Part shown: positions 11,405 through 62,439 of the stretch, piece after piece | Numbering within the stretch: the first letter of the stretch is position 1 | Layout: the number at the start of each line of letters is the position of its first letter | Assembly (NCBI GenBank): GCA_030264375.1 | Contig: JASCQW010000099.1 | Span: 75,127,551 to 75,189,989 of the forward strand | Direction: 5' to 3' | Length of the DNA: 62,439 nucleotides | Origin: Carcharhinus longimanus | Taxonomy: Eukaryota | Made by a program: the position numbers and the translations under genes | Notes under the pieces: generated by a model | What the model saw: only the letters and a program-made list of their open reading frames with translations | What the model was told of the DNA's origin: nothing | The model's database searches: none

Positions 11405-12320
11405 GAATTGGAAATTACACAGAATTTACAGCACAGAAACAGGCTATCTGAACCAACCAGTCCATGCCATTCTTCATGCTCCACTCAAACTTTGACTAGC
11501 TAACGGCATACCCTCTATTTCTTTCTTCCTCATACATTTAGGTAACTTCCCCTTAAATACATCCATATTAAATACCATTTACCATGCCATTAAATATATA
11601 CCATTTGCCTTAGCTACCCTACATGGTAGCAAGTTCCACATTTGCACCACTGTCTTTGGTAAAGAGATTTCTTTTAAATTTCCTATTTGATTTTTTGAGA
11701 GTGTCATATTGATGACCTCTAGCTTTTCACTTCCTCATAACTGGAAACACATTCACTATCTCTTTTTGCCAATTCCATCTTTAAAGATGGACATTAGGTC
11801 ACTCTTCAGTCTTATCTTTTCAAGAGAAGAGATTCAGCCTATCCTGATAAGCATAACCTCACAATTCTAATCACACGCTTGGCAAACAGCAGAATTACCA
11901 TTGCTGAATTTCGTACCAACATCTTGGTCATTACTGACCAGAAATTTAACTAGGCCAGCTATATAAATATCATGGCTACAAGATCAGGTCAGAAGTTGAG
12001 AATCCTGCAGTGAGTAGCTCACTTCTTGACTCCCCAAAGCCTGTCTTAACAGCTACAAGGCACAAGGATGTGATGGAATACTTCCCACTTGTCTGGATGA
12101 GTGCAGCTCCAAAACGATCAAGAAACTCAACACCATCCAGGACAAAGCATATCATACACCAACTTCCATGTCCACTCCCTCCACTACAGCAGCAGCAGCG
12201 CATGCCACCTTACTGCAGCACCTCATTAAGGATCCATCAACAGCACCATCTAAACCTGTTACTCGACCATTTAGAAGAAGGGCATCAGGTTTAAGGGAAT
12301 ACCACCCATTGCACATTCTC
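11405..12320. mobile_element. Decayed CR1 (minus, to about 11870) followed by a CR1/L2-group fragment (plus)
   Basis: CR1-like tail and ORF2 remnants, then the VMEYFPLVWMSAAP motif at about 12070. Confidence 0.6.
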
Positions 12321-12380
12321 CTCCAAGACAGGTGTGCGGTTAGGTGGGGTGCAGTAGGTGTTGTGGGGACAGAAATACAA

Positions 12381-13026
12381 ATCTCAAGGAGGTTTGAATT
12401 CAGGATTGAGGAAGTGATTGCTTTTGTGTAGATCCTTGTGTCCCATTTGGACATGATGGGGGGAATTTTCCCATCCCACCCGCCACAGGAATCGTTGTGG
12501 GCAGACCACACAAAGTCTGTTGACCTCAGGTGGGATTTTCCAGTTTTGGGGTGAGCCTGATTTCTAGTATCTTTTGTGTGCGGGGGGGAAAGAAAGCTTT
12601 CTGATTTCACTCTGAAATGGCCTTGCTCTAATTTAAATTTTACTCTCTCGTGTTCTGGATTTACTCACAATATTTTTATTTTATAATTTTAAACAGCTTG
12701 ATGGAGACATCCTCAAGGCAATACAAATCATGTTTATGAAATCTGTCATCATTATTCAACCCTTTAAATCCCAATATTATTCTGCTGAATTTGCATCGTA
12801 TCCACTCCAATATAACCCGTCTGAGATGTGGGCTGGGATTTTCTGGCCATGCTCACCCCAAAACTGAAAAATCCTACCTGAGGTCAACAGACTTTGTGTG
12901 GTCTGCCCACAACGATTCCTGTGGCGGGTGGGATGGGAAAATACCCCCCATCATGTCCAAATAGGACACAAGGATCTACACAAAAGCAATCACTTCCTCA
13001 ATCCTGAATTCAAACCTCCTTGAGAT
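12381..13026. repeat. 176-bp inverted repeat (12381-12556 and 12851-13026)
   Basis: The arms are reverse complements with only a few mismatches, separated by a 294-bp spacer. Confidence 0.93.
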
Positions 13027-13659
13027 AAAGGCCAACATTCCATTAGTTTTTTTGATTACTTTGCATTCTTGTGCACTAGCTTTTAGTGATTTGTGTACAC
13101 AGACACCTAAACTCCACCACTTTCAGTCTTGCATCAAAATATTTAATCATCTTTCTTGGATCCGAAGTGGATGATCTCACATTTCCCCACAATGAACTCC
13201 AATTTTCAACATTTTGCTTACTCATTTTAGTTAGTTTCCATCCCTTAGTACTTTCCACCTCCCATCTACACAATTTACAGTGCTTTCTATTCAAAGAATG
13301 TGTTTTAGTTTGTTTGGTGAGGAAGAATTGGGGCCAGCAGGAGGGGAGGAAAGACAGAAGCATCTAAAAAGAAGCTTATCTGCTATGAAAGGGGAGCTGT
13401 GAGAAAGCTCATTTGGTTTTTTTCAAGATGCTATAATGTTTTTCAGGGTTCCTATCCCAGATTAAACCTGATGGAAAAGTGAAAAAAGTGTTTCAAAATT
13501 TGTAATCATAAACTTCCATCACCCTCCACACACTCACCAGGGGAGAAAGATTTTGGCATAATACTACTACCAGCTACCTGCACAGCATTCTTCAAGAACA
13601 ATGTTATAACTGGCGCTATGTGAATGAATTCCTAGCTCTCAATTTCCAAAAGCACCAAG

Positions 13660-14320
13660 ACAGAATCACAGAAACCACACAAAAGTTAGGGTTCAGAAAG
13701 AGGCCATTCAGACCATCATGTGTACGCAAGCCAAAAAATAAATAGAAACTAGCCTCTCATTTTAATCCTATTTTCCTACTCCATAGCCATTGCAGGTTAC
13801 CACCCTTCAGGTATAGATTCTTGTACCTTTTAAACGAATTGAGCATCTCTGCTGCAACCAATTTGGGCAGTGAATTCCAGACGCTCACCATCCTCTGGGT
13901 GAGGAAGCTTTTTGTCATATGCGCTCTAATCATTCTGCTAATCTATGCCTCCTAGTATTTGGTCCTCAGCTAGAGCCAACAAATCTTTCCTGTTTACACA
14001 ATCTAGGCCCCTCATAATTTTGCATACCTCAATTAGGTCACCATTCAGTTTCCTCTGTTCTAAGGAAAGCAACACTAGCCTATCCACTTTTTCCTCTGAA
14101 CTGCAATTTTCAAGCCCTGGCAACATTCTGGTAAATCTCCTCTGTAATCTCTCCACAGCAATTACATTGTTCCTGTAATGTGATGACTAGAACTGTAGCA
14201 AGATTCCAGCTGTAGCCTGACCAACATTACATCCTTGCTTTTGTATTTGATACCTCACCCAATAAAGGAAAGGATTCCATAGCTTTCTTTACCACCTTAT
14301 CCACCTGCCCTGCCACATTC
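13660..14320 (-). mobile_element. CR1 LINE 3' fragment
   Basis: ERLQRRFTRMLPGLE…LLSLEQRKLNGDLIEVCKIMRG, the CR1 ORF2 C-terminus. Confidence 0.85.
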
Positions 14321-15185
14321 CCAATCATATGCAAGCGCTACCCAAAAATCACAAATAGAACACAGAGCTAGTGTTCATTGTAGAGAATCTGGTCTGCTGG
14401 AAGACAGAGAATACACTTCAGGCCCTTATATTAATTAAAAAGATACAGGGCCTTAAAAGCTCATCCTCAATGTGATTTACCTCTAGGTTGGTTCATTATC
14501 CTGCAGCAATTTTACATTCCAGCTTTAGGGTCCATTAATGACTTTAGTTCCCCTAATTAGCTGTCCTATACATCACTAGAGACTTCAATTATTACAGATG
14601 TTAAGAAACCAAGTAATTTATTTCGAAGATGAGGCATGTCATTCCACGAAGGATGTGAGGGTTTCTCCCAATACCAAAAACTTCAGTGACTATATGTCTA
14701 GTTTATTTTTTCATTTAGTAAAAAGGCTCACTAACTGTACCAGATCTATGAAGATAAAAGCACAGCATGAATGCTGCTGCTTCCCATCCAAAGAGAATGC
14801 CATGCATATGTGAGAGAAAAAGAAGAACAACTTTTTGTGGAGAATAGGAAGTCAGGTGACTTATTACATAAGTTTACATTATAAACCTCTTTCTACTAGC
14901 AGTGCTGTGATGAAACATATCTGCTTGAGAGTGAAACACAAGGTATGGTATACATTGTATTAACAATGAATTGGTTAAAAGGTAGTTAATTAGAATGTCT
15001 GGGAAGGTGGTAAGCATGCATGAAATCCCTTCATTAGCATAACTCTCTCCCACTATCCAAGTAATAAATCCTTTTGCATCATGTTAAATGAGCAGGATAC
15101 CAGTTCCTAAGAACTGTATAAATATACAAGTTTTAGTTACATTAAACATCCCAGAGCCCCCTGTTCTTCAGACAAATACACAAAC

Positions 15186-15213
15186 CTCAGTCAATCCAGC
15201 CTTTATACGAGCG
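15186..15213 (-). CDS. FEZ2: Candidate 28-nt alternative FEZ2 microexon with in-frame stop (…ILKALV*)
   Basis: About 94-nt AG-free U-rich tract, branch-like CCTGAC (15245-15250), tgtgctag|CG CTC GTA TAA ... CTGAG|gtttgt. Phase 1 matches the preceding exon. Confidence 0.55.
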
Positions 15214-16129
15214 CTAGCACAACAAAAAAGCAAAACAAAGAAAAGTCAGGTAAAAGAGGAAAGAAAATGTAAATTCAACAGAAACAAAAATCAACAAAAG
15301 AAAAAAAATCTGAAGAGAATTAAAGACCAAAACAGTTTTTCAATCCACTTTACCACTGTTATTAAATTCATTTAGGTGACTTTGAGTTTATTAGTGTCAC
15401 AAATGATCTTTCAATTTTGAAGTGAATCCCCACTGGAACTATATACCTCCATGTGGTCAGTTATGTTCTCAAACAGAAAGGAAGCCAAAGCTTAGTTCTG
15501 GACCTTCCACACTAATCACCAGAAATGGTCAACAGGGAGCCCATAGGTGTAAAATGGAATAAATGTTAACTATCTCTATTCATGGGCAGCTCAGTTCTCT
15601 AAAGCTGTACCGTCTGATTGCTAACCTGAAAGGTTGCATGGTTGTCATAACCAAAGCTGAGTTGTTAAATAGGCTACAGACTCAAACCTGTATTCTGGGA
15701 GAAAATCACACTCTTCCTATCACCATAATGACTAATGGATTAGTCTGATATTAATTTTACAACTGCTTTTGAACATCCATACACTTAGGATCTTTGCAAT
15801 TCTGTTTGGTGAGTTTTTTTTTATAAGATATTTTGAACACCTTTAAAGAATGACTTCTGAAGCACTTCTATTCGGAAATATCTTCTGGATTATCAATTAC
15901 TTTCAACAATTCAAAGAAGTTCTGAACTGGATTTAAAAATGTTCCTTTACATGTATTAAATCTCACTGAATGACTCTATGGAGGTGATCACCCTCCCACC
16001 TCTTGCTTTTACTCAAGCACACTTGCTTCCCAGGTACAAGGCATGGTAAGGAGGGAGGGCCCTCAAATGCTGGGTTTACACCTCTTTGTTTTGCCCTCGT
16101 AATTGCTGGGGGTTCCCTGATGGAGTTTG

Positions 16130-16860
16130 CTCTCACAGAATTGTAACAGTGCAGAAGGCCATTTCGCTGATCATGTCTGCACCAACTCTCTGAACAAACT
16201 CATCTTGTGCTATTTCTCTGCCTTCTCCCCATAATCCTGCACATTCCTCCTTTTCTGATAACAGTGTAAGTCCCCCTTGAATGCTTTAATTGAACCTGCC
16301 TTTACCACACTCTCAGGCAGTGCATTCCAAACCCTAATCAACCACTGCGTGAAAATATTTTTCCTCATTTGACTTTCGCTTCTTTTGCCAATTACTTTAA
16401 ATTTGTGTCTCATCTTTGAATTTGTATTCTTGATCTTTTCATGACTGGAAATAGTTTCTCCTTGGCTACTCTGACCAGATCCCTTAAAATTTTGAATACC
16501 TTTATCAAATCTTTCAGCCTATTTTCTCTGAGGAAAACAGTCCTAACCTCCCCCATCTACTTTCATAACTGAAGTTTCTCATACCTGGAGCCATTCTCAT
16601 GAATCTGTCCTGCACTCTCTCTAAATCTTGCACATATTTCCTAAAGAGTGATGCCTAAAACTGGACACTCTACTCTAATTGAGGCCAAACTTGTGACTTA
16701 CAAAAGTTTAACATAAACTCCTTGCTCTGGTACTCTATATCCCCATTAGTATTGCCCAAGATACCGTATGCTTTATTAATCATGCTCTCAACCTGACCAT
16801 CTTCACTGATTTATGTATGTGTATATATATCCAGGTTCCTTAGCTCCTGCATCCACTTCC
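16130..16860 (-). mobile_element. CR1 LINE 3' fragment
   Basis: RKNIFTQWLIRVWNALPESVVKAGSIKAFK, the CR1 ORF2 C-terminus. Confidence 0.85.
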
Positions 16861-18876
16861 AGTCTGAGAAAATCCAAGGCCCAAGTCCTGAAGGCAGTGA
16901 AAAGGTAAGTCTTTTCTTTTTACAAGACTAAGAAGACGGCCATTATGACTGGAGGTCTTCCAATTAGTCATCTTGGACAGCCATCAACAGCCCAGAGCTG
17001 GTGGCTGTTACGTCAGGGTAATATTGGACATTTCTGTTCTCATTTCTGGATACACCCCTGCACTCCGGGAAGGTCAAACCAATGAAGAAAGCTTTAATCT
17101 CCAGAACTGCATGCAGCTTCAAGTCAGGTCAGGTAGAATGCACCTTGGGTATAGGTAGGCTGGGGGTGGGTATTCAATGAATGTTGTAAAGGCGATCTAT
17201 AAGAATTTTCCTTAAAAATTGAAGTGCCATCCCAGCCCTAACCATGAGGTTGAAAACACTGGCTAAATGATTAGACATAGGCCATATTTCCAGAAGTCAA
17301 TTGCAAAACTATCACTGACTGAATTATCCATTTCCACAGGTTCACAACAACAATGGGGGGAACAAATCCATCTGTCTACGTGGTACAATTTTCTATGAAG
17401 TGTATTTAGCTTTCTACTCTGTTCTTTTACTTTTTATTAATCATTTTTCTCTTTATCTTCATTGTCATGTGTTGAACAATTAGTTAGCTTGCTGTAATGT
17501 GTCTGAAGAGTAACTTAACAATGGCAAATTTGCTTACAGCAAATCAGTGCTGTAATCAGAGCTTTTTGTTGTACACCTATAGGCAATGAAGGTTGCTTAG
17601 TAACATGCCATATTGTTTCCAGATAATGCACATTGTGTGTGTAGCATGCAGAGAAAGGCTTTGTGTTTGTAGCGCTGTCACAGGATGAAAACCCTTCAAA
17701 TGAAATTTCTCTGCTACAAGCTTTCACTTTGACAACAATCTAGTTACATTTTAAGTTGTATTCATGAATAACAATTAATAAATTATTTCTAGTTTGGAAG
17801 GAAATAAAACCAGAAAGGAAAGAAGAGGAAGAGCATGCGGTAATTAATGTATTTGATGCCCTCAAGCTTTACAGGCACAGAATCACTTCTGAATGGTCAC
17901 CCCAATTTTTATATGCAAGTTGAAGGCATGGTCATCCCTCATGATTTACTGGTCATTAGTGCTGGAAAATAAAACATCTTTTCATCTGAACATGCAGTGT
18001 AAGCATTAGACACTACTAGATCAGTTATAGAATGAGCAAGATACACAGTATATCTATTAACATGTCCCAATAATAAACTCAGATCCAATTTTAGAAAGGA
18101 TCCTATAAAAATGTACTTAGCTGCCTGAGTAACAATATTACCAGCATACATTAATCATTGTCACCAAAAATATCCACAGCAATTCTTCAGATTACCCTCC
18201 ATTATTTTAGAGGAGTCTCTGAGGAATCACCATTTCATGGGATAACTCTGAACTTCTGGCCAACGGAGATTGGGGAAACCCCATGCAAATTTTGCCTAAA
18301 TGTAAGCACTTTACATGGCAATATAGTACTCAAACAGGTCTTGCACAAATTCCAGTTAATATTAGTTGGCAACACAGCAAGTGTTTTAATGTCACTGTGT
18401 TCATCATTTATTGGCAAAAATGGTTTGCCAAACACCTCCATGAACATATGGACTGTTTAACATCCAAGAAGATATCACTAGTTTACCTTTCTGACCTGGT
18501 AAAAGATGCAAGATAGTGATCTATCAGAATGCTTTCAATAGTCTTAGATTTTAGTAGGCCATTAGTTCTAAGTATAGTCACCAGATCTTGATTTTACATT
18601 TGGCTGATGCACAACCAAAATCTTAATTAAAGTATCTCACGTTATCAAATACAGCAAATTTTAGTCTTCTGCCTGTACTAACAAATGCTGACAGTCTCAA
18701 TATAGGTCAGAATCGCACCATACGTTTTGAATAAAGGAATTAGTTGAAGCATGTTAGAGATCATTGCAATAAATTTCAAAGCAGATATAAGACAATATCA
18801 AAGTACAGACCAAATTTATCAGCAATTTACTTATTAATGGATCAGTGAACAATTTAGAAAGTAATTCTGCACTAAC

Positions 18877-18942
18877 CTTTCAGAATGTAATCTGTCAGCA
18901 AGCTTGGCACTCTCTCACTATCTTCCTTCATTGCCTGAAGGA
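18877..18942 (-). CDS. FEZ2: FEZ2 penultimate coding exon (66 nt)
   Basis: (I)LQAMKEDSERVPSLLTDYILK plus G. Acceptor ctccttttaag|TC, donor AAG|gttagt, phase 1/1. Confidence 0.96.
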
Positions 18943-19813
18943 CTTAAAAGGAGATGCCAACAATTAGATTTCCAAATTAACGCTTTCTTAACTCAGGAAA
19001 AGCTAAGTACAATAGGCAAAGAACAGAGATCTTTTGCAATATTTTAAATAATCAGAGGACTAAACACATAGCAGTCGCAACTATAAAGTACAAACTATTT
19101 AAATGGAAATGGGCATGAATAAATGCACTGTATCAGTAATTGTTTTGTGCTCACTATTTTAGCAACAAACAATAATACATTAAAACTGCAGGTTGATTCA
19201 GATTTAGCCTCTAAATACATAAGCCCTTTTTGTAGTAAATATCATGAAGCATAAATCAGGAACAACATAAACCAGATAAGACCAATAAACCAATTTCATG
19301 GGACTATCTTTTGTACCATAATGGTGCCAGAGATATGTCCAGTGCTGTCCTGGACCACCAATTCAACTGCACCGAATGGGCTACCTGAAATTTTAATGGG
19401 ACAATATTTGGGAACAGTGAACCTAGTTCGCAAATATGTTTCTAGTTAATTCAAACACGGTGCACTTTCAGTCAGCAATGCTTTGAACCATTGGTCCTTT
19501 CTGTCTTTAGGACCATCTACTGGCAGCACCCATCATAAAGGCCACCTAATGCTATGTATACTATCCACTTCTGTATACCAATTTAGGGTCATCAAATTAC
19601 AGCTTAAGTTCTGCCACTTACTTGAATTGGTTTTAGCTCACTAACATGAGTAATTAGACACAATTGAACAAGGGTAATTCAATCTGCTCCCAGTAAATTA
19701 TGAGAATAAAAAAACATAATAATTTATTAGAAATAATGGTAAAATAAATTCTTCTCTCAGTGTTTTCAGAGTTCAGTTTAACATTTGGAATCTATAAAAT
19801 CATTTATACTCAC

Positions 19814-39149: not shown

Positions 39150-42062
39150 TAGCTAGCTACAAACAAAGCAGCCTTCTCGAAGGTCAACCCATGGAAAGCA
39201 ATTGGGATACCCAAACAAGCACCCAGATCCTGCCTGGACCAGCTGCAGGGATATTCGCAAACATTTTCAACCTCTTTGGTACCGAGATGACAGTCACCGT
39301 CTTGAAGCGAAGAAAAGCCAGGGAGCATGCTTTAATGACTACTGTCTGGTGGCTCTGACATCCATCATTATGAAGTTCTTTGAAAGTTTAGTCATGACAC
39401 TAATCAATTCTGGCCTCCCAGATTGCCTAGATCAACTACAGTTCACCTACCGCTGCAATAGATCTACAGCAGATGTCATCTCCCTGGCCCTGCACTCAAC
39501 CCTGGGACACCTAGATAACAAAGACCCCTATGTCAGACTCCTATTTATTGACTACAGCTCAGCCTTCAACACCATTATTCCTACAAAACTCATCTCCAAA
39601 CTCTNNNNNNNNNNNNNNNNNNNNNNNNNNNNNNNNNNNNNNNNNNNNNNNNNNNNNNNNNNNNNNNNNNNNNNNNNNNNNNNNNNNNNNNNNNNNNNNN
39701 NNNNAATGAACAGATTGTCTTATGAGGGAAGATTGGATAGACTGGGCTTGTGTNNNNNNNNNNNNNNNNNNNNNNNNNNNNNNNNNNNNNNNNNNNNNNN
39801 NNNNNNNNNNNNNNNNNNNNNNNNNNNNNNNNNNNNNNNNNNNNNNNNNNNNNNNNNNNNNNNNNNNNNNNNNNNNNNNNNNNNNNNNNNNNNNNNNNNN
39901 NNNNNNNNNNNTTACACACACACTCACTCTCCCATACTCACACACACACTCACACACTTACATACTCANNNNNNNNNNNNNNNNNNNNNNNNNNNNNNNN
40001 NNNNNNNNNNNNNNNNNNNNNNNNNNNNNNNNNNNNNNNNNNNNNNNNNNNNNNNNNNNNNNNNNNNNNNNNNNNNNNNNNNNNNNNNNNNNNNNNNNNN
40101 NNNNNNNNNNNNNNNNNNNNNNNNNTTTAAGGTTAGGTTATGTGATGCAGAGGATATCATCTTTTTTATTCCAACTACCTCTGTCTGTCTGTTTAACTGA
40201 ATGGAATTTTAGTGTTCTGTAACAGCTGGGGTTCTCAGGAAGTCGAGGAGCAGTAATTTGTGTCAGTGTTGCAATAACTGCAATGGTAACATTGCAACAT
40301 GTGGTAAATATGCAAAAACATTACCTCAGCCCGCCTGGCTTTTACAACTGAAACTCCCAAAGAGAAACTGCAGCTCAAGAATCGAGTCATCTCACGACAA
40401 TGAAGATGTTTCTCTCACTCGTAAACCATTTCCACTGAATGATGTAAATTAACCAAATCCTGGTTTTCAAATATATTCACTGACCAGGAGAGGCAACGTC
40501 ACCAAAACAAATATTTAAACTCATTTGTTATATTCTGTTTTGCTACCTCTGATTTATTTGTTCAATAGTGTCTTCACTAAATGTCTTAGGGCACGGTGAC
40601 ACAGTGGTTAGCAATGCTGCCTCACAGCGCTAGGGACCCGGGTTCGATTCCTGGCTTGGGTCACTGTCTGTCTGCGTGGAGTTTGCATGTTCTCCCCGTG
40701 TCTGCGTGGGTTTCCTCCCACAGTCCGAAAAATGTGCTGGTTAAGTGCGTTGGCCTAAATTCTCCCTCAGCGTACCCCAACAGGCATTGGAGTGTGGCGA
40801 CTGGGGGATTTTCAAAGTAACTTCATTGCAGTGTTAATCTAAGCCTCGTGAAACTAATAAAATTGAGAAACTAGGGCAGAATTTTCGAGATCCTCTGAAT
40901 TTGAGACGAGAGGCTTACTGGTGTGCCGGTCTCCTGGGTCCATTCCCAGAGTTTGGGACCCAGATGCCTCTTCCAAAGGTCCGGTCACCAACTGGGATTC
41001 AATGTATTCTGGGAAGTTTCATCACATGACTTATGCCCACGCTCTAGCCATGAGGTGGCCAACACACCCCTGTGACTTCCCGCCTTCCTGCACCAATCGG
41101 AAAGCAAAAAGACTCATCACCCAATCGAATGACCCCCAAAAACTAACATCTTGAAACACGACAAAGGCTCCTACCCCAGCGACTACAGAAAGCCTAGTAA
41201 TCAGATTGCTCTGGAATGTGCAGCCAGCAGGAACTGGTTTGCCATGCCTGAGAGGACCTCATCAGAGGAAAAAGACTGCAGTAGAGGAACAAGCTGAAGA
41301 AATCTCTATGATATTCTCTGGGAATAAGCTCTCCCTCAGCGTCAACCAAATGAAAGAGATAGCCATCAACCTCAGGAAGAGTAAAGGAGAACATGCCCCT
41401 GTCTACATCAATGGGGACAAAGGAGAAATGGTCGAGAGCTTCAAGCTTTTAGATGTCCAGATCACCAACAACCTGTCCTGATCCCTGCAGGCCGACACTC
41501 ATTAAGAAAGACAGCCAACGCCTCTACTTTCTCAGAAGACTAAGGAAATTTGGCATGCCCGCTATGACTCTCACCAACTTTTACAGACGCACCTCAGAAA
41601 GCATTCTTTCTGATGGTATCACAGCTTGATACAGCTCCTGCTCTGTCCAAGACTGAAAGAAACTACAAAGGGTTGTAAACAAAGCCCAGTCCATCACTCA
41701 AACCAGCCTCCCACCCACTGACTCTGTCAACACTTCCCTCTGCCTCGGAAAAGCAGCCAGCATAATGAAGGACCCCACCCACCCGGACATACTCTCGTCC
41801 ACCTTCTTTCATTGGGAAAAAGAAACAGAAGTTTGAGAATACATATCAACTGACTCAAAAACAGCTTCATCCCTGCTGCCATTAGGCTTTCGAATGGATC
41901 TCCCTTTTATTAAGTTGATCTTTCTCTACACCCTGGCTACGACTGCTAACACTACATTCTACACTCTCTCCATTCCTTCTCTATGTTTAGTGTGCTTTGT
42001 CTGTACAGAGTGCAAGAAATAATACTTTTCACTGTATACTAATACGTGACAATAATAAATCA
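39150..42062 (+). mobile_element. Rex1/Babar LINE (RT 39150-39604; 3' part about 41240-42062) split by gaps and insertions
   Basis: [20 protein letters not shown]…[21 protein letters not shown], a Rex/Babar RT. The 3' tail is the same as at 1541-1586. Confidence 0.85.
40589..40862 (+). mobile_element. V-SINE, tail type B
   Basis: gggcacggtgacacagtggttagc…gggttcgattcc head, core and type B tail. Confidence 0.85.
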
Positions 42063-60749: not shown

Positions 60750-62439
60750 TCAGAGTCATAGAGGTTTACAGCATGGAAACAGGCCCTTCTGCCCAACTTG
60801 TCCATGCTGCCCTTTTTTTTGTAAAGATCTCTAAGCTAATCCCAATTGCCAGCATTTGGTCCATATCCCCCTATATCCATCATACCCATGTAACTATCTA
60901 AATGCTTCTTAAAAGATAAAATTACACCCACCTCTACTACCACCTCTGGCAGCTTGTTCCAGACACTCACCACCCTCTGTGTGAAAAAATTGCCCCTCTG
61001 GACACTTCTGTATCTCTCNNNNNNNNNNNNNNNNNNNNNNNNNNNNNNNNNNNNNNNNNNNNNNNNNNNNNNNNNNNNNNNNNNNNNNNNNNNNNNNNNN
61101 NNNNNNNNNNNNNNNNNNNNNNNNNNNNNNNNNNNNNNNNNNNNNNNNNNNNNNNNNNNNNNNNNNNNNNNNNNNNNNNNNNNNNNNNNNNNNNNNNNNN
61201 NNNNNNNNNNNNNNNNNNNNNNNNNNNNNNNNNNNNNNNNNNNNNNNNNNNNNNNNNNNNNNNNNNNNNNNNNNNNNNNNNNNNNNNNNNNNNNNNNNNN
61301 NNNNNNNNNNNNNNNNNNNNNNNNNNNNNNNNNNNNNNNNNNNNNNNNNNNNNNNNNNNNNNNNNNNNNNNNNNNNNNNNNNNNNNNNNNNNNNNNNNNN
61401 NNNNNNNNNNNNNNNNNNGTTCTGTAACTCTCCCCAACACCCTACCATTAACTGAGTAAGTCCTGCCCTGGTTCAATCTACCAAAATGCATCACCCCACA
61501 TTTGTTTAAATTAAACTCCATCAGCCATTCGTCAGCCCACTGGCCCAAATGATCAAGATCCCATGGCAATTGGGGATAACTTTCTTCACTGTCCACTAGG
61601 TCACCAATCTTAGTGTCATCCACAAACTTACTAACCATGCCTCCTATATTCTCAGCCAAATCATGAATATAAATGACAAATAACGGTGGACCCAGCACTG
61701 ATCCTTGAGGCACACCGCTGGTCACAGGCCTCCAGTTTGAAAAACAACTCTCTACAACCGACAGAAGCCACTTTTGTATCCGTTTAGATACGTCACCCTC
61801 GATCCCATGAGATTTAACTTTATACAACCACCTACCATATAGTACCTTGTCAAAGGCCTTGCTAAAGTCCATGTAGACAACAACAACTGCACCGCCCTCA
61901 TCTACCTTCTTGGTTACCCCTTCAAAAAACTCAATCAAATTTGAGAGACTTGATTTTCCGCTCACAAAGCCATGCTGACTGTCCCTAATCAGTACTTGCG
62001 TCTCTAAATTCTGTAGATCCTGTTTTTCAAAATACCTTCCAATAATTTACCCACCACAGATGTGAGGCTCATTGCCCTGTAGTTCCCAGGCTTTTCCCTG
62101 CATCCCTTTCTAAACAAAGGCACAACATTTGCCACTATCCAATCTTCAGGCACCTCACCCACGAGTATCGATGATTCAAATATCTCAGCTAGGAGACATG
62201 CAATTTCCGCCCTAGTCTCCCACAACGTCCTGGAATACACTTCATCAGGTCCCACAGATTTATCAACCTTGATGCGCTTTAAGACTTTCAGCACCTCCTT
62301 CTCTGTAATATGTACATTCCTTAAGACATCACTATTTATTTCCCCAAATTCCCCAACATCCATGCTTTTCTCAACAGTAAATACTGATGAGAAATATTCA
62401 TTTAGGATCTCACCCACCTCTTGTGGATCTGCACATAGA
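60750..62439 (-). mobile_element. Relatively young CR1 (HER1-like) LINE: ORF2 RT plus 3' UTR, disrupted
   Basis: KPGNYRAMSLTSVVGKLLE; YMDFSKAFDKV; SGVPQGSVLGP.LFVIYI.DL; KFVDDTK. Frame break near 61965-62004. Confidence 0.93.

Follow-up and report, generated by a model that had tools for sequence, protein, structure and literature searches.

Background

FEZ1 and FEZ2 both bind the tail of kinesin-1, a motor whose activation requires the C-terminal region of FEZ1; according to the accessible text of PMC2063617, FEZ1(1-308), a form without the last 84 residues, cannot activate kinesin-1. In the portions of the literature available, the partners of FEZ proteins have been mapped to the C-terminal half. 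Worm UNC-76 is described there with isoforms of 376 and 385 residues, and a C-terminally tagged UNC-76::YFP rescues the worm mutants (available part of PMC1561584), so that a free native end is evidently not essential for the core function. In the FEZ literature searched, nothing was found on a role for the near-invariant V-L-C-P end.

Two described kinds of alternative exon can be compared with the one considered here. The 81-nt FEZ2 exon (human isoform 2, HsaEX0025589), which according to the accessible part of PMC11142752 was checked by RT-PCR in brain and glioma, is an alternative cassette of the same gene, but it is a separate exon, in frame and internal; in the DNA analysed here it was found at 25965-25885, with an acceptor-like AG 8 nt within it. 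The other kind are the neural microexons controlled by SRRM3/4, which the present exon resembles in being short, in following a long AG-free pyrimidine tract and in having UGC before the AG, but from which it differs in its length of 28 nt, in its stop codon and in showing neither neural inclusion nor an SRRM4 response in the data found. This length exceeds the 3-27 nt of SRRM3/4 microexons while falling inside the 30-nt limit given in the available part of PMC7821500, and a shorter inner form of the exon measures 15 nt.

Our preferred reading, which we hold with a probability of roughly 0.68, is that FEZ2 contains a cassette exon conserved in jawed vertebrates that exchanges the VLCPT end for ALV in a minor isoform escaping nonsense-mediated decay (NMD), with altered contacts of the tail or altered cysteine modification as the consequence. 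The likelihood of the proposed tail function lies well under that of the existence and conservation of the exon. Events of this type are common and databases already contain the isoform, so that the exon represents a testable lead rather than a new mechanism.

A probable 28-nt exon in the last intron of FEZ2

The window, the whole stretch of 62,439 nucleotides from Carcharhinus longimanus that was analysed, holds the 3' part of the FEZ2 gene on the minus strand, to which all positions below refer. The gene belongs to the FEZ/UNC-76 family (Pfam match PF07763) with its nearest likeness to FEZ2, and its largest coding exon in the window shares 96-99% identity with most FEZ2 records from sharks and rays. 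The FEZ1 paralogue lies on a different contig, where its exon matches a named Mustelus record at 100% identity. The last intron of FEZ2 (18876-11374, 7503 nt) separates the penultimate coding exon (18942-18877, 66 nt), which reads ...LTDYILK and ends in phase 1, from the last exon, whose coding start (11373-11357) reads V-L-C-P-T-stop and which would serve as 3' UTR if the small exon were included.

The sequence-only reading had placed a small regulated exon in this intron, and when its elements were recomputed from the sequence each was found at the minus-strand position given for it. A U-rich tract of 94 nt free of AG (15309-15216) precedes the acceptor and contains a putative branch-point-like CTGAC (15249-15245, -36 to -32, with the A at -33) as well as two UGC motifs at -19 (15232-15230) and -6 (15219-15217). 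The outer acceptor AG, part of a TAG, lies at 15215-15214 and opens a cassette exon of 28 nt (15213-15186) that reads A-L-V-stop, with the stop codon at 15205-15203. The exon ends in ...GAG followed by the donor gtttgt (15185-15180), which matches the donor consensus at 6 of 9 positions and is thereby on par with the other donors of the gene (6-7 of 9). Downstream lie two candidate TGCATG elements at 15020-15015 and 14806-14801, 166 and 380 nt from the exon, and two AATAAA hexamers at 14707 and 14622 (14617..14707), which bear only on the possibility of an alternative last exon. The claimed phase match with the preceding exon and the rewriting of the tail also held, as splicing in silico gives ...DYILKALV* upon inclusion and ...DYILKVLCPT* upon skipping.

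The acceptor stands out from its surroundings: only 3 of 4103 AG sites on the minus strand and 1 of 3787 on the plus strand pass the same thresholds (no AG for at least 60 nt, a pyrimidine share of 75% or more over 40 nt, and YAG), which were chosen after the site had been seen. Used as a DNA query against the whole genome, the segment 15150-15330 matched this place alone. RNA contigs from 4 of 22 runs that fall on 10300-19300 consist mostly of repeats; the bins over the small exon have no cover, and the constitutive 66-nt exon has almost none. Among the 15 of 58 RNA-contig joints listed there was no FEZ2 junction, the constitutive exon itself being nearly uncovered. An origin of the small exon by duplication of the start of the last exon was considered and set aside, the likeness amounting to only four bases.

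Distribution of the ALV end among vertebrates

Whether the exon had already been annotated was left open by the sequence-only reading. A search of FEZ2 isoforms for the end LKALV* found it from sharks to mammals (e.g. XP_038670933.1), and since RefSeq and other database models carry the ALV end, the exon is already annotated in other species. Two FEZ2 searches, one FEZ1 search and three cluster look-ups yielded 491 FEZ proteins, 38 of which, from at least 36 species, end in DYILK-A[LF][VI] (28 ALV, 8 AFV and 2 ALI); these counts are a lower bound, as they come from the best 120 matches per search and at most 15 members per cluster. The remaining proteins end in VLCPT (313), VMCPT (3), VLCPS (1), GWID (2), GL (2) or G (1), stop at DYILK (10), carry other tails (53) or are without the motif (68). 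The A-[LF]-[VI] end occurs in sharks, rays, sturgeon, paddlefish, gar, bowfin, teleosts, frogs, axolotl and birds, and among mammals in monotremes, opossum, rodents, rabbit, dog, horse and macaque.

An end identical to that predicted here, ...DYILKALV, is found in FEZ2 isoform X2 of the catsharks Scyliorhinus canicula (XP_038670933.1) and S. torazame (XP_072368553.1) and likewise in opossum (XP_056669247.1), platypus (XP_028907487.1), dingo (XP_048952113.1), rabbit (XP_069925358.1) and macaque (UniRef100_A0A2K5UG66), whereas it was absent from the human records retrieved. Most of the ALV records are automatic gene models, which are generally built on RNA-seq introns. These relatives are known from database models alone, and no tissue pattern or function is visibly attached to them. 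No paper describing the ALV exon was found in the full-text literature on splicing or isoforms of FEZ2 and unc-76, a body of text in which subscription journals are mostly outside coverage, and the exon is thus apparently known as a database annotation and unstudied in the literature. We regard it as highly probable that the exon is real and conserved, and a cassette exon shared across jawed vertebrates is very likely the right description of the 28-nt segment. Other short FEZ2 ends among the retrieved records are DYQ (Narcine X3), GL (chimpanzee and orangutan, partial) and G (horse), in the proteins P0409, P0317, P0321 and P0353.

The paralogue behaves differently. Of 20 FEZ1-type records from sharks and rays, 19 end in VLCPT, one is truncated and none has the ALV end. 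The last FEZ1 intron of this shark (1514 nt) contains a sole AG that would give A-[LFM]-[VI]-stop; it reads AMI behind a poor tract with 38% pyrimidine and was rejected as a counterpart. On the sequences compared, the ALV exon looks specific to FEZ2. Another AG in the same FEZ1 intron, 133 nt ahead of the true last acceptor (L005:1844-1860, minus strand), would lead to the reading V-L-C-S-L-stop; this resembles a copy of the VLCPT end and is used in none of the 20 FEZ1-type records.

An inner acceptor and a probable third tail

A second AG, missed by the sequence-only reading, lies inside the exon at 15202-15201, 13 nt past the outer one, which makes the two AGs candidate short-distance tandem acceptors. 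Its use would leave an exon of 15 nt (15200-15186) in another frame, G-W-I-D-stop with the stop codon at 15189-15187, and splicing in silico yields ...DYILKGWID*. Exactly this end is carried by FEZ2 isoform X3 of the rays Mobula hypostoma (XP_062911593.1) and Hemitrygon akajei (XP_072906604.1), the two models on which the proposed use of the inner site rests. A third end, GWID, is the likely product of the weaker inner acceptor, in rays at least, and with the ALV and GWID frames in the same exon one short exon can encode two tails. The GWID end was found in these two rays only, and a search for further GWID-ended relatives added none among the best 120 of 669 matches, in which clustering at 90% hides such isoforms. 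Partial records from chimpanzee (PNI41333.1) and orangutan (PNJ25278.1) end in GL, which may or may not equal the GWID form.

A likely mouse counterpart

In the accessible part of PMC7821500, file 2 lists a MicroExonator row (chr17_-_78379869_78379898) for a mouse exon of 29 nt with 45 junction reads and a mean vertebrate conservation of 2.07. The row is tagged 'Missing in GENCODE', a label that by the text of the paper implies an entry in VastDB, and a search of the accessible supplements by gene name gave no match for FEZ2. When translated in phase 1, the mouse exon reads A-M-V-stop and has the same CTGAG end as the shark exon, with which it shares 19 of 29 columns in a hand alignment. By its coordinates, the row presumably lies near the 3' end of Fez2; as it bears a transcript identifier (ENSMUST00000070039) and no gene name, its assignment to Fez2 rests on this presumed position together with sequence likeness. 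The mouse exon is most likely the orthologue of the shark exon, from which it differs by one additional base, by Met in place of Leu, by having no inner AG and by its clustering as excluded. Without the inner AG in mouse, GWID is not a pan-vertebrate end. The Ala and stop codons of shark and mouse differ in their letters and agree in what they encode, an indication that the peptide is under selection.

The data behind the mouse row comprise, according to the available text, 17 tissues, mostly embryonic, plus cortex to an age of 21 months. The exon falls in cluster 'Excluded E1' and is not listed as differential in mid/hindbrain, forebrain, skeletal muscle, heart or adrenal (PMC7821500, accessible files). 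As it is mostly excluded in the 17 tissues, it may be too rare to matter. For the shark gene, too, the ALV form is probably a minor isoform.

Proposed consequences for mRNA and protein

A stop codon within about 50 nt of the last junction usually escapes NMD. The ALV stop ends 17 nt upstream of that junction, which supports the expectation of the sequence-only reading that the included transcript would likely escape; a poison exon would have its stop more than 50 nt upstream of this junction, a distance that neither ALV (17 nt) nor GWID (1 nt) reaches. The course of events in our preferred reading would be as follows. The exon is very short and would by default be skipped, the spliceosome being brought to it by the long U-rich tract and the branch point, and mRNA in which it is included would escape decay and keep its normal 3' UTR. 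In the protein, A-L-V would stand in for V-L-C in the last predicted helix and the Cys-Pro found throughout the family would be lost. Where the kinesin-1-activating region ends, this swap may alter contact with a partner or modification of a cysteine, the region itself being retained.

How widely the Cys-Pro is kept can be seen among 141 new representatives of 50%-identity clusters (from the best 150 of 1079 matches), 74 of which carry the last helix, many of them far from vertebrate sequences. In 56 of these 74, xxCP follows the helix; 11 ends start with G, probably through donor read-through, and 7 are of other kinds. AlphaFold models of both isoforms contain helices at 366-381 and 383-398 that end at the shared Leu, and in the VLCPT form Cys-Pro-Thr lies beyond the last helix, all at low confidence (pLDDT 56-64). 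Given the shared end point, the models suggest that the ALV swap likely keeps the predicted last helix and removes Cys-Pro-Thr, a point that, like the inner acceptor with its GWID end, goes beyond the sequence-only reading. When the last 52 residues of the VLCPT form from catshark were modelled as a homodimer, the score was 0.01, and a search of solved structures with the ALV isoform returned nothing below E 0.19.

An isoform found from shark to mammal that removes exactly the Cys-Pro would point to a function of these residues and offer a natural control. A more ambitious version can be put forward only tentatively: a FEZ2-specific splice switch as old as the jawed vertebrates by which a certain cell type makes a kinesin-1 adaptor lacking the otherwise family-wide Cys-Pro, and which in cartilaginous fish uses one 28-nt exon in two frames for a three-way choice of tail (VLCPT, ALV or GWID). 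If this version is true, nature provides a loss-of-cysteine variant with which the conserved end of FEZ/UNC-76 proteins could be probed.

Alternative explanations

The sequence-only reading had favoured regulation by SRRM3/4 or RBFOX in brain or muscle, a proposal that the excluded and unchanging state of the likely mouse orthologue in brain, heart and muscle does not support. A neural microexon activated by SRRM3/4, with high inclusion in neurons or in cells rich in SRRM3, photoreceptors and islet cells for example, would fit the 94-nt AG-free tract and the position of the UGC motifs (-19 and -6) after the branch point and ahead of the AG, a placement reported for 74-79% of SRRM3/4 microexons (accessible part of bioRxiv 10.1101/2024.09.17.613571), but TGC within 18 nt of the AG also occurs in 27 of 77 acceptor-like control sites. 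FEZ2 is absent from two human lists of 314 and 708 SRRM4-induced exons, which by the apparent file numbering are files 7 and 9 of PMC7935315 and may not have covered a human counterpart of the exon; among the 12 of its 19 supplementary files that were searched, the gene appears in file 6 only, with exons of 76 and 81 nt. Shark regulation could differ from that of mouse and bulk data dilute rare cell types, yet SRRM3/4 control is on balance unlikely. Activation by RBFOX in muscle, heart or brain, to which we assign only a slim chance, could draw on the two TGCATG elements within 400 nt downstream, an arrangement seen at 2.5% of sampled positions, but four further TGCATG lie upstream of the exon in the same intron and the mouse exon shows no differential inclusion in the tissues concerned. 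A single TGCATG in the next 200 nt is found at 11% of the 5425 sampled positions, and overall the regulatory motifs exceed chance only mildly. FEZ2 gave no match in the accessible supplements of PMC12626420 (12 of 13 files), PMC12868881 and PMC8797185, and the FEZ2 events in the available parts of PMC11142752, PMC8277521, PMC8499053 and PMC7935315 are other events than the 28-nt exon.

Perhaps the exon acts at the RNA level or is tolerated noise, its low inclusion altering the fate of the mRNA and the peptide being incidental. The low inclusion in the mouse data available, the conservation between shark and mouse of the part of the exon after the stop, and the enrichment of excluded clusters in frame-breaking exons (accessible part of PMC7821500) would agree with this, but the stop lies inside the NMD-escape zone and the reading A-[LFM]-[VI]-stop is maintained across at least 36 species, which makes such a role quite improbable. 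Alternatively, as the sequence-only reading had itself allowed, the donor could be read through to a poly(A) signal near 14707 or 14622, so that the segment would be an alternative last exon. The two AATAAA lie about 480 and 560 nt downstream, and protein records by themselves cannot separate the two structures; against this, the donor scores like the others of the gene and the mouse exon, with its conserved donor end, was found as an insertion in the junction of the flanking exons, the manner in which MicroExonator detects such exons within known junctions according to the available text of PMC7821500. This favours a cassette, and we consider an alternative last exon very improbable. Compatible with our preferred reading would be a PDZ-binding motif as the purpose of the ALV end, hooking FEZ2 to a scaffold, an idea also raised from the sequence earlier. 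Known PDZ classes I-III are distinguished at position -2 by Ser/Thr, a large hydrophobic residue or Asp/Glu. All 38 proteins, and the mouse reading as well, have Val or Ile as their last residue, but position -2 is Ala in 38 of 38, outside these three classes, the structural model places the ALV residues in a helix, and the term 'PDZ' does not occur in the accessible text of two FEZ papers, so that a PDZ role is doubtful. The conserved cassette exon with a minor ALV isoform remains the reading that we prefer.

Other features of the locus

For white shark, basking shark and rat there are models with the end LTK[MI]LCPT, as though the 66-nt exon at 18877-18942 were skipped in frame; such a skip would delete most of the last helix with Cys-Pro-Thr retained. 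About 30 kb past the normal last exon and outside the window, at L012:4933-5084 on the minus strand, lies a phase-1 exon that encodes an EF-hand-like loop and a stop codon behind a strong acceptor. It is 79% identical to the elephant shark model UniRef100_A0A4W3JUY5, and in this model as well as in that of the coelacanth (XP_005989778.1) the FEZ2 DYILK exon is joined to the homologue of the EF-hand-like exon. It may belong to FEZ2 as one more alternative last exon, or to an adjacent EF-hand gene whose final exon is reached via read-through. Decayed reverse-transcriptase fragments of LINE type, with the family assigned by eye, occur at 60967-62046, at 39157-39590 and at several spots in the last intron, and the RNA contigs pile up on repeats near 11800-13300, 13600-14500 and 16000-16600.
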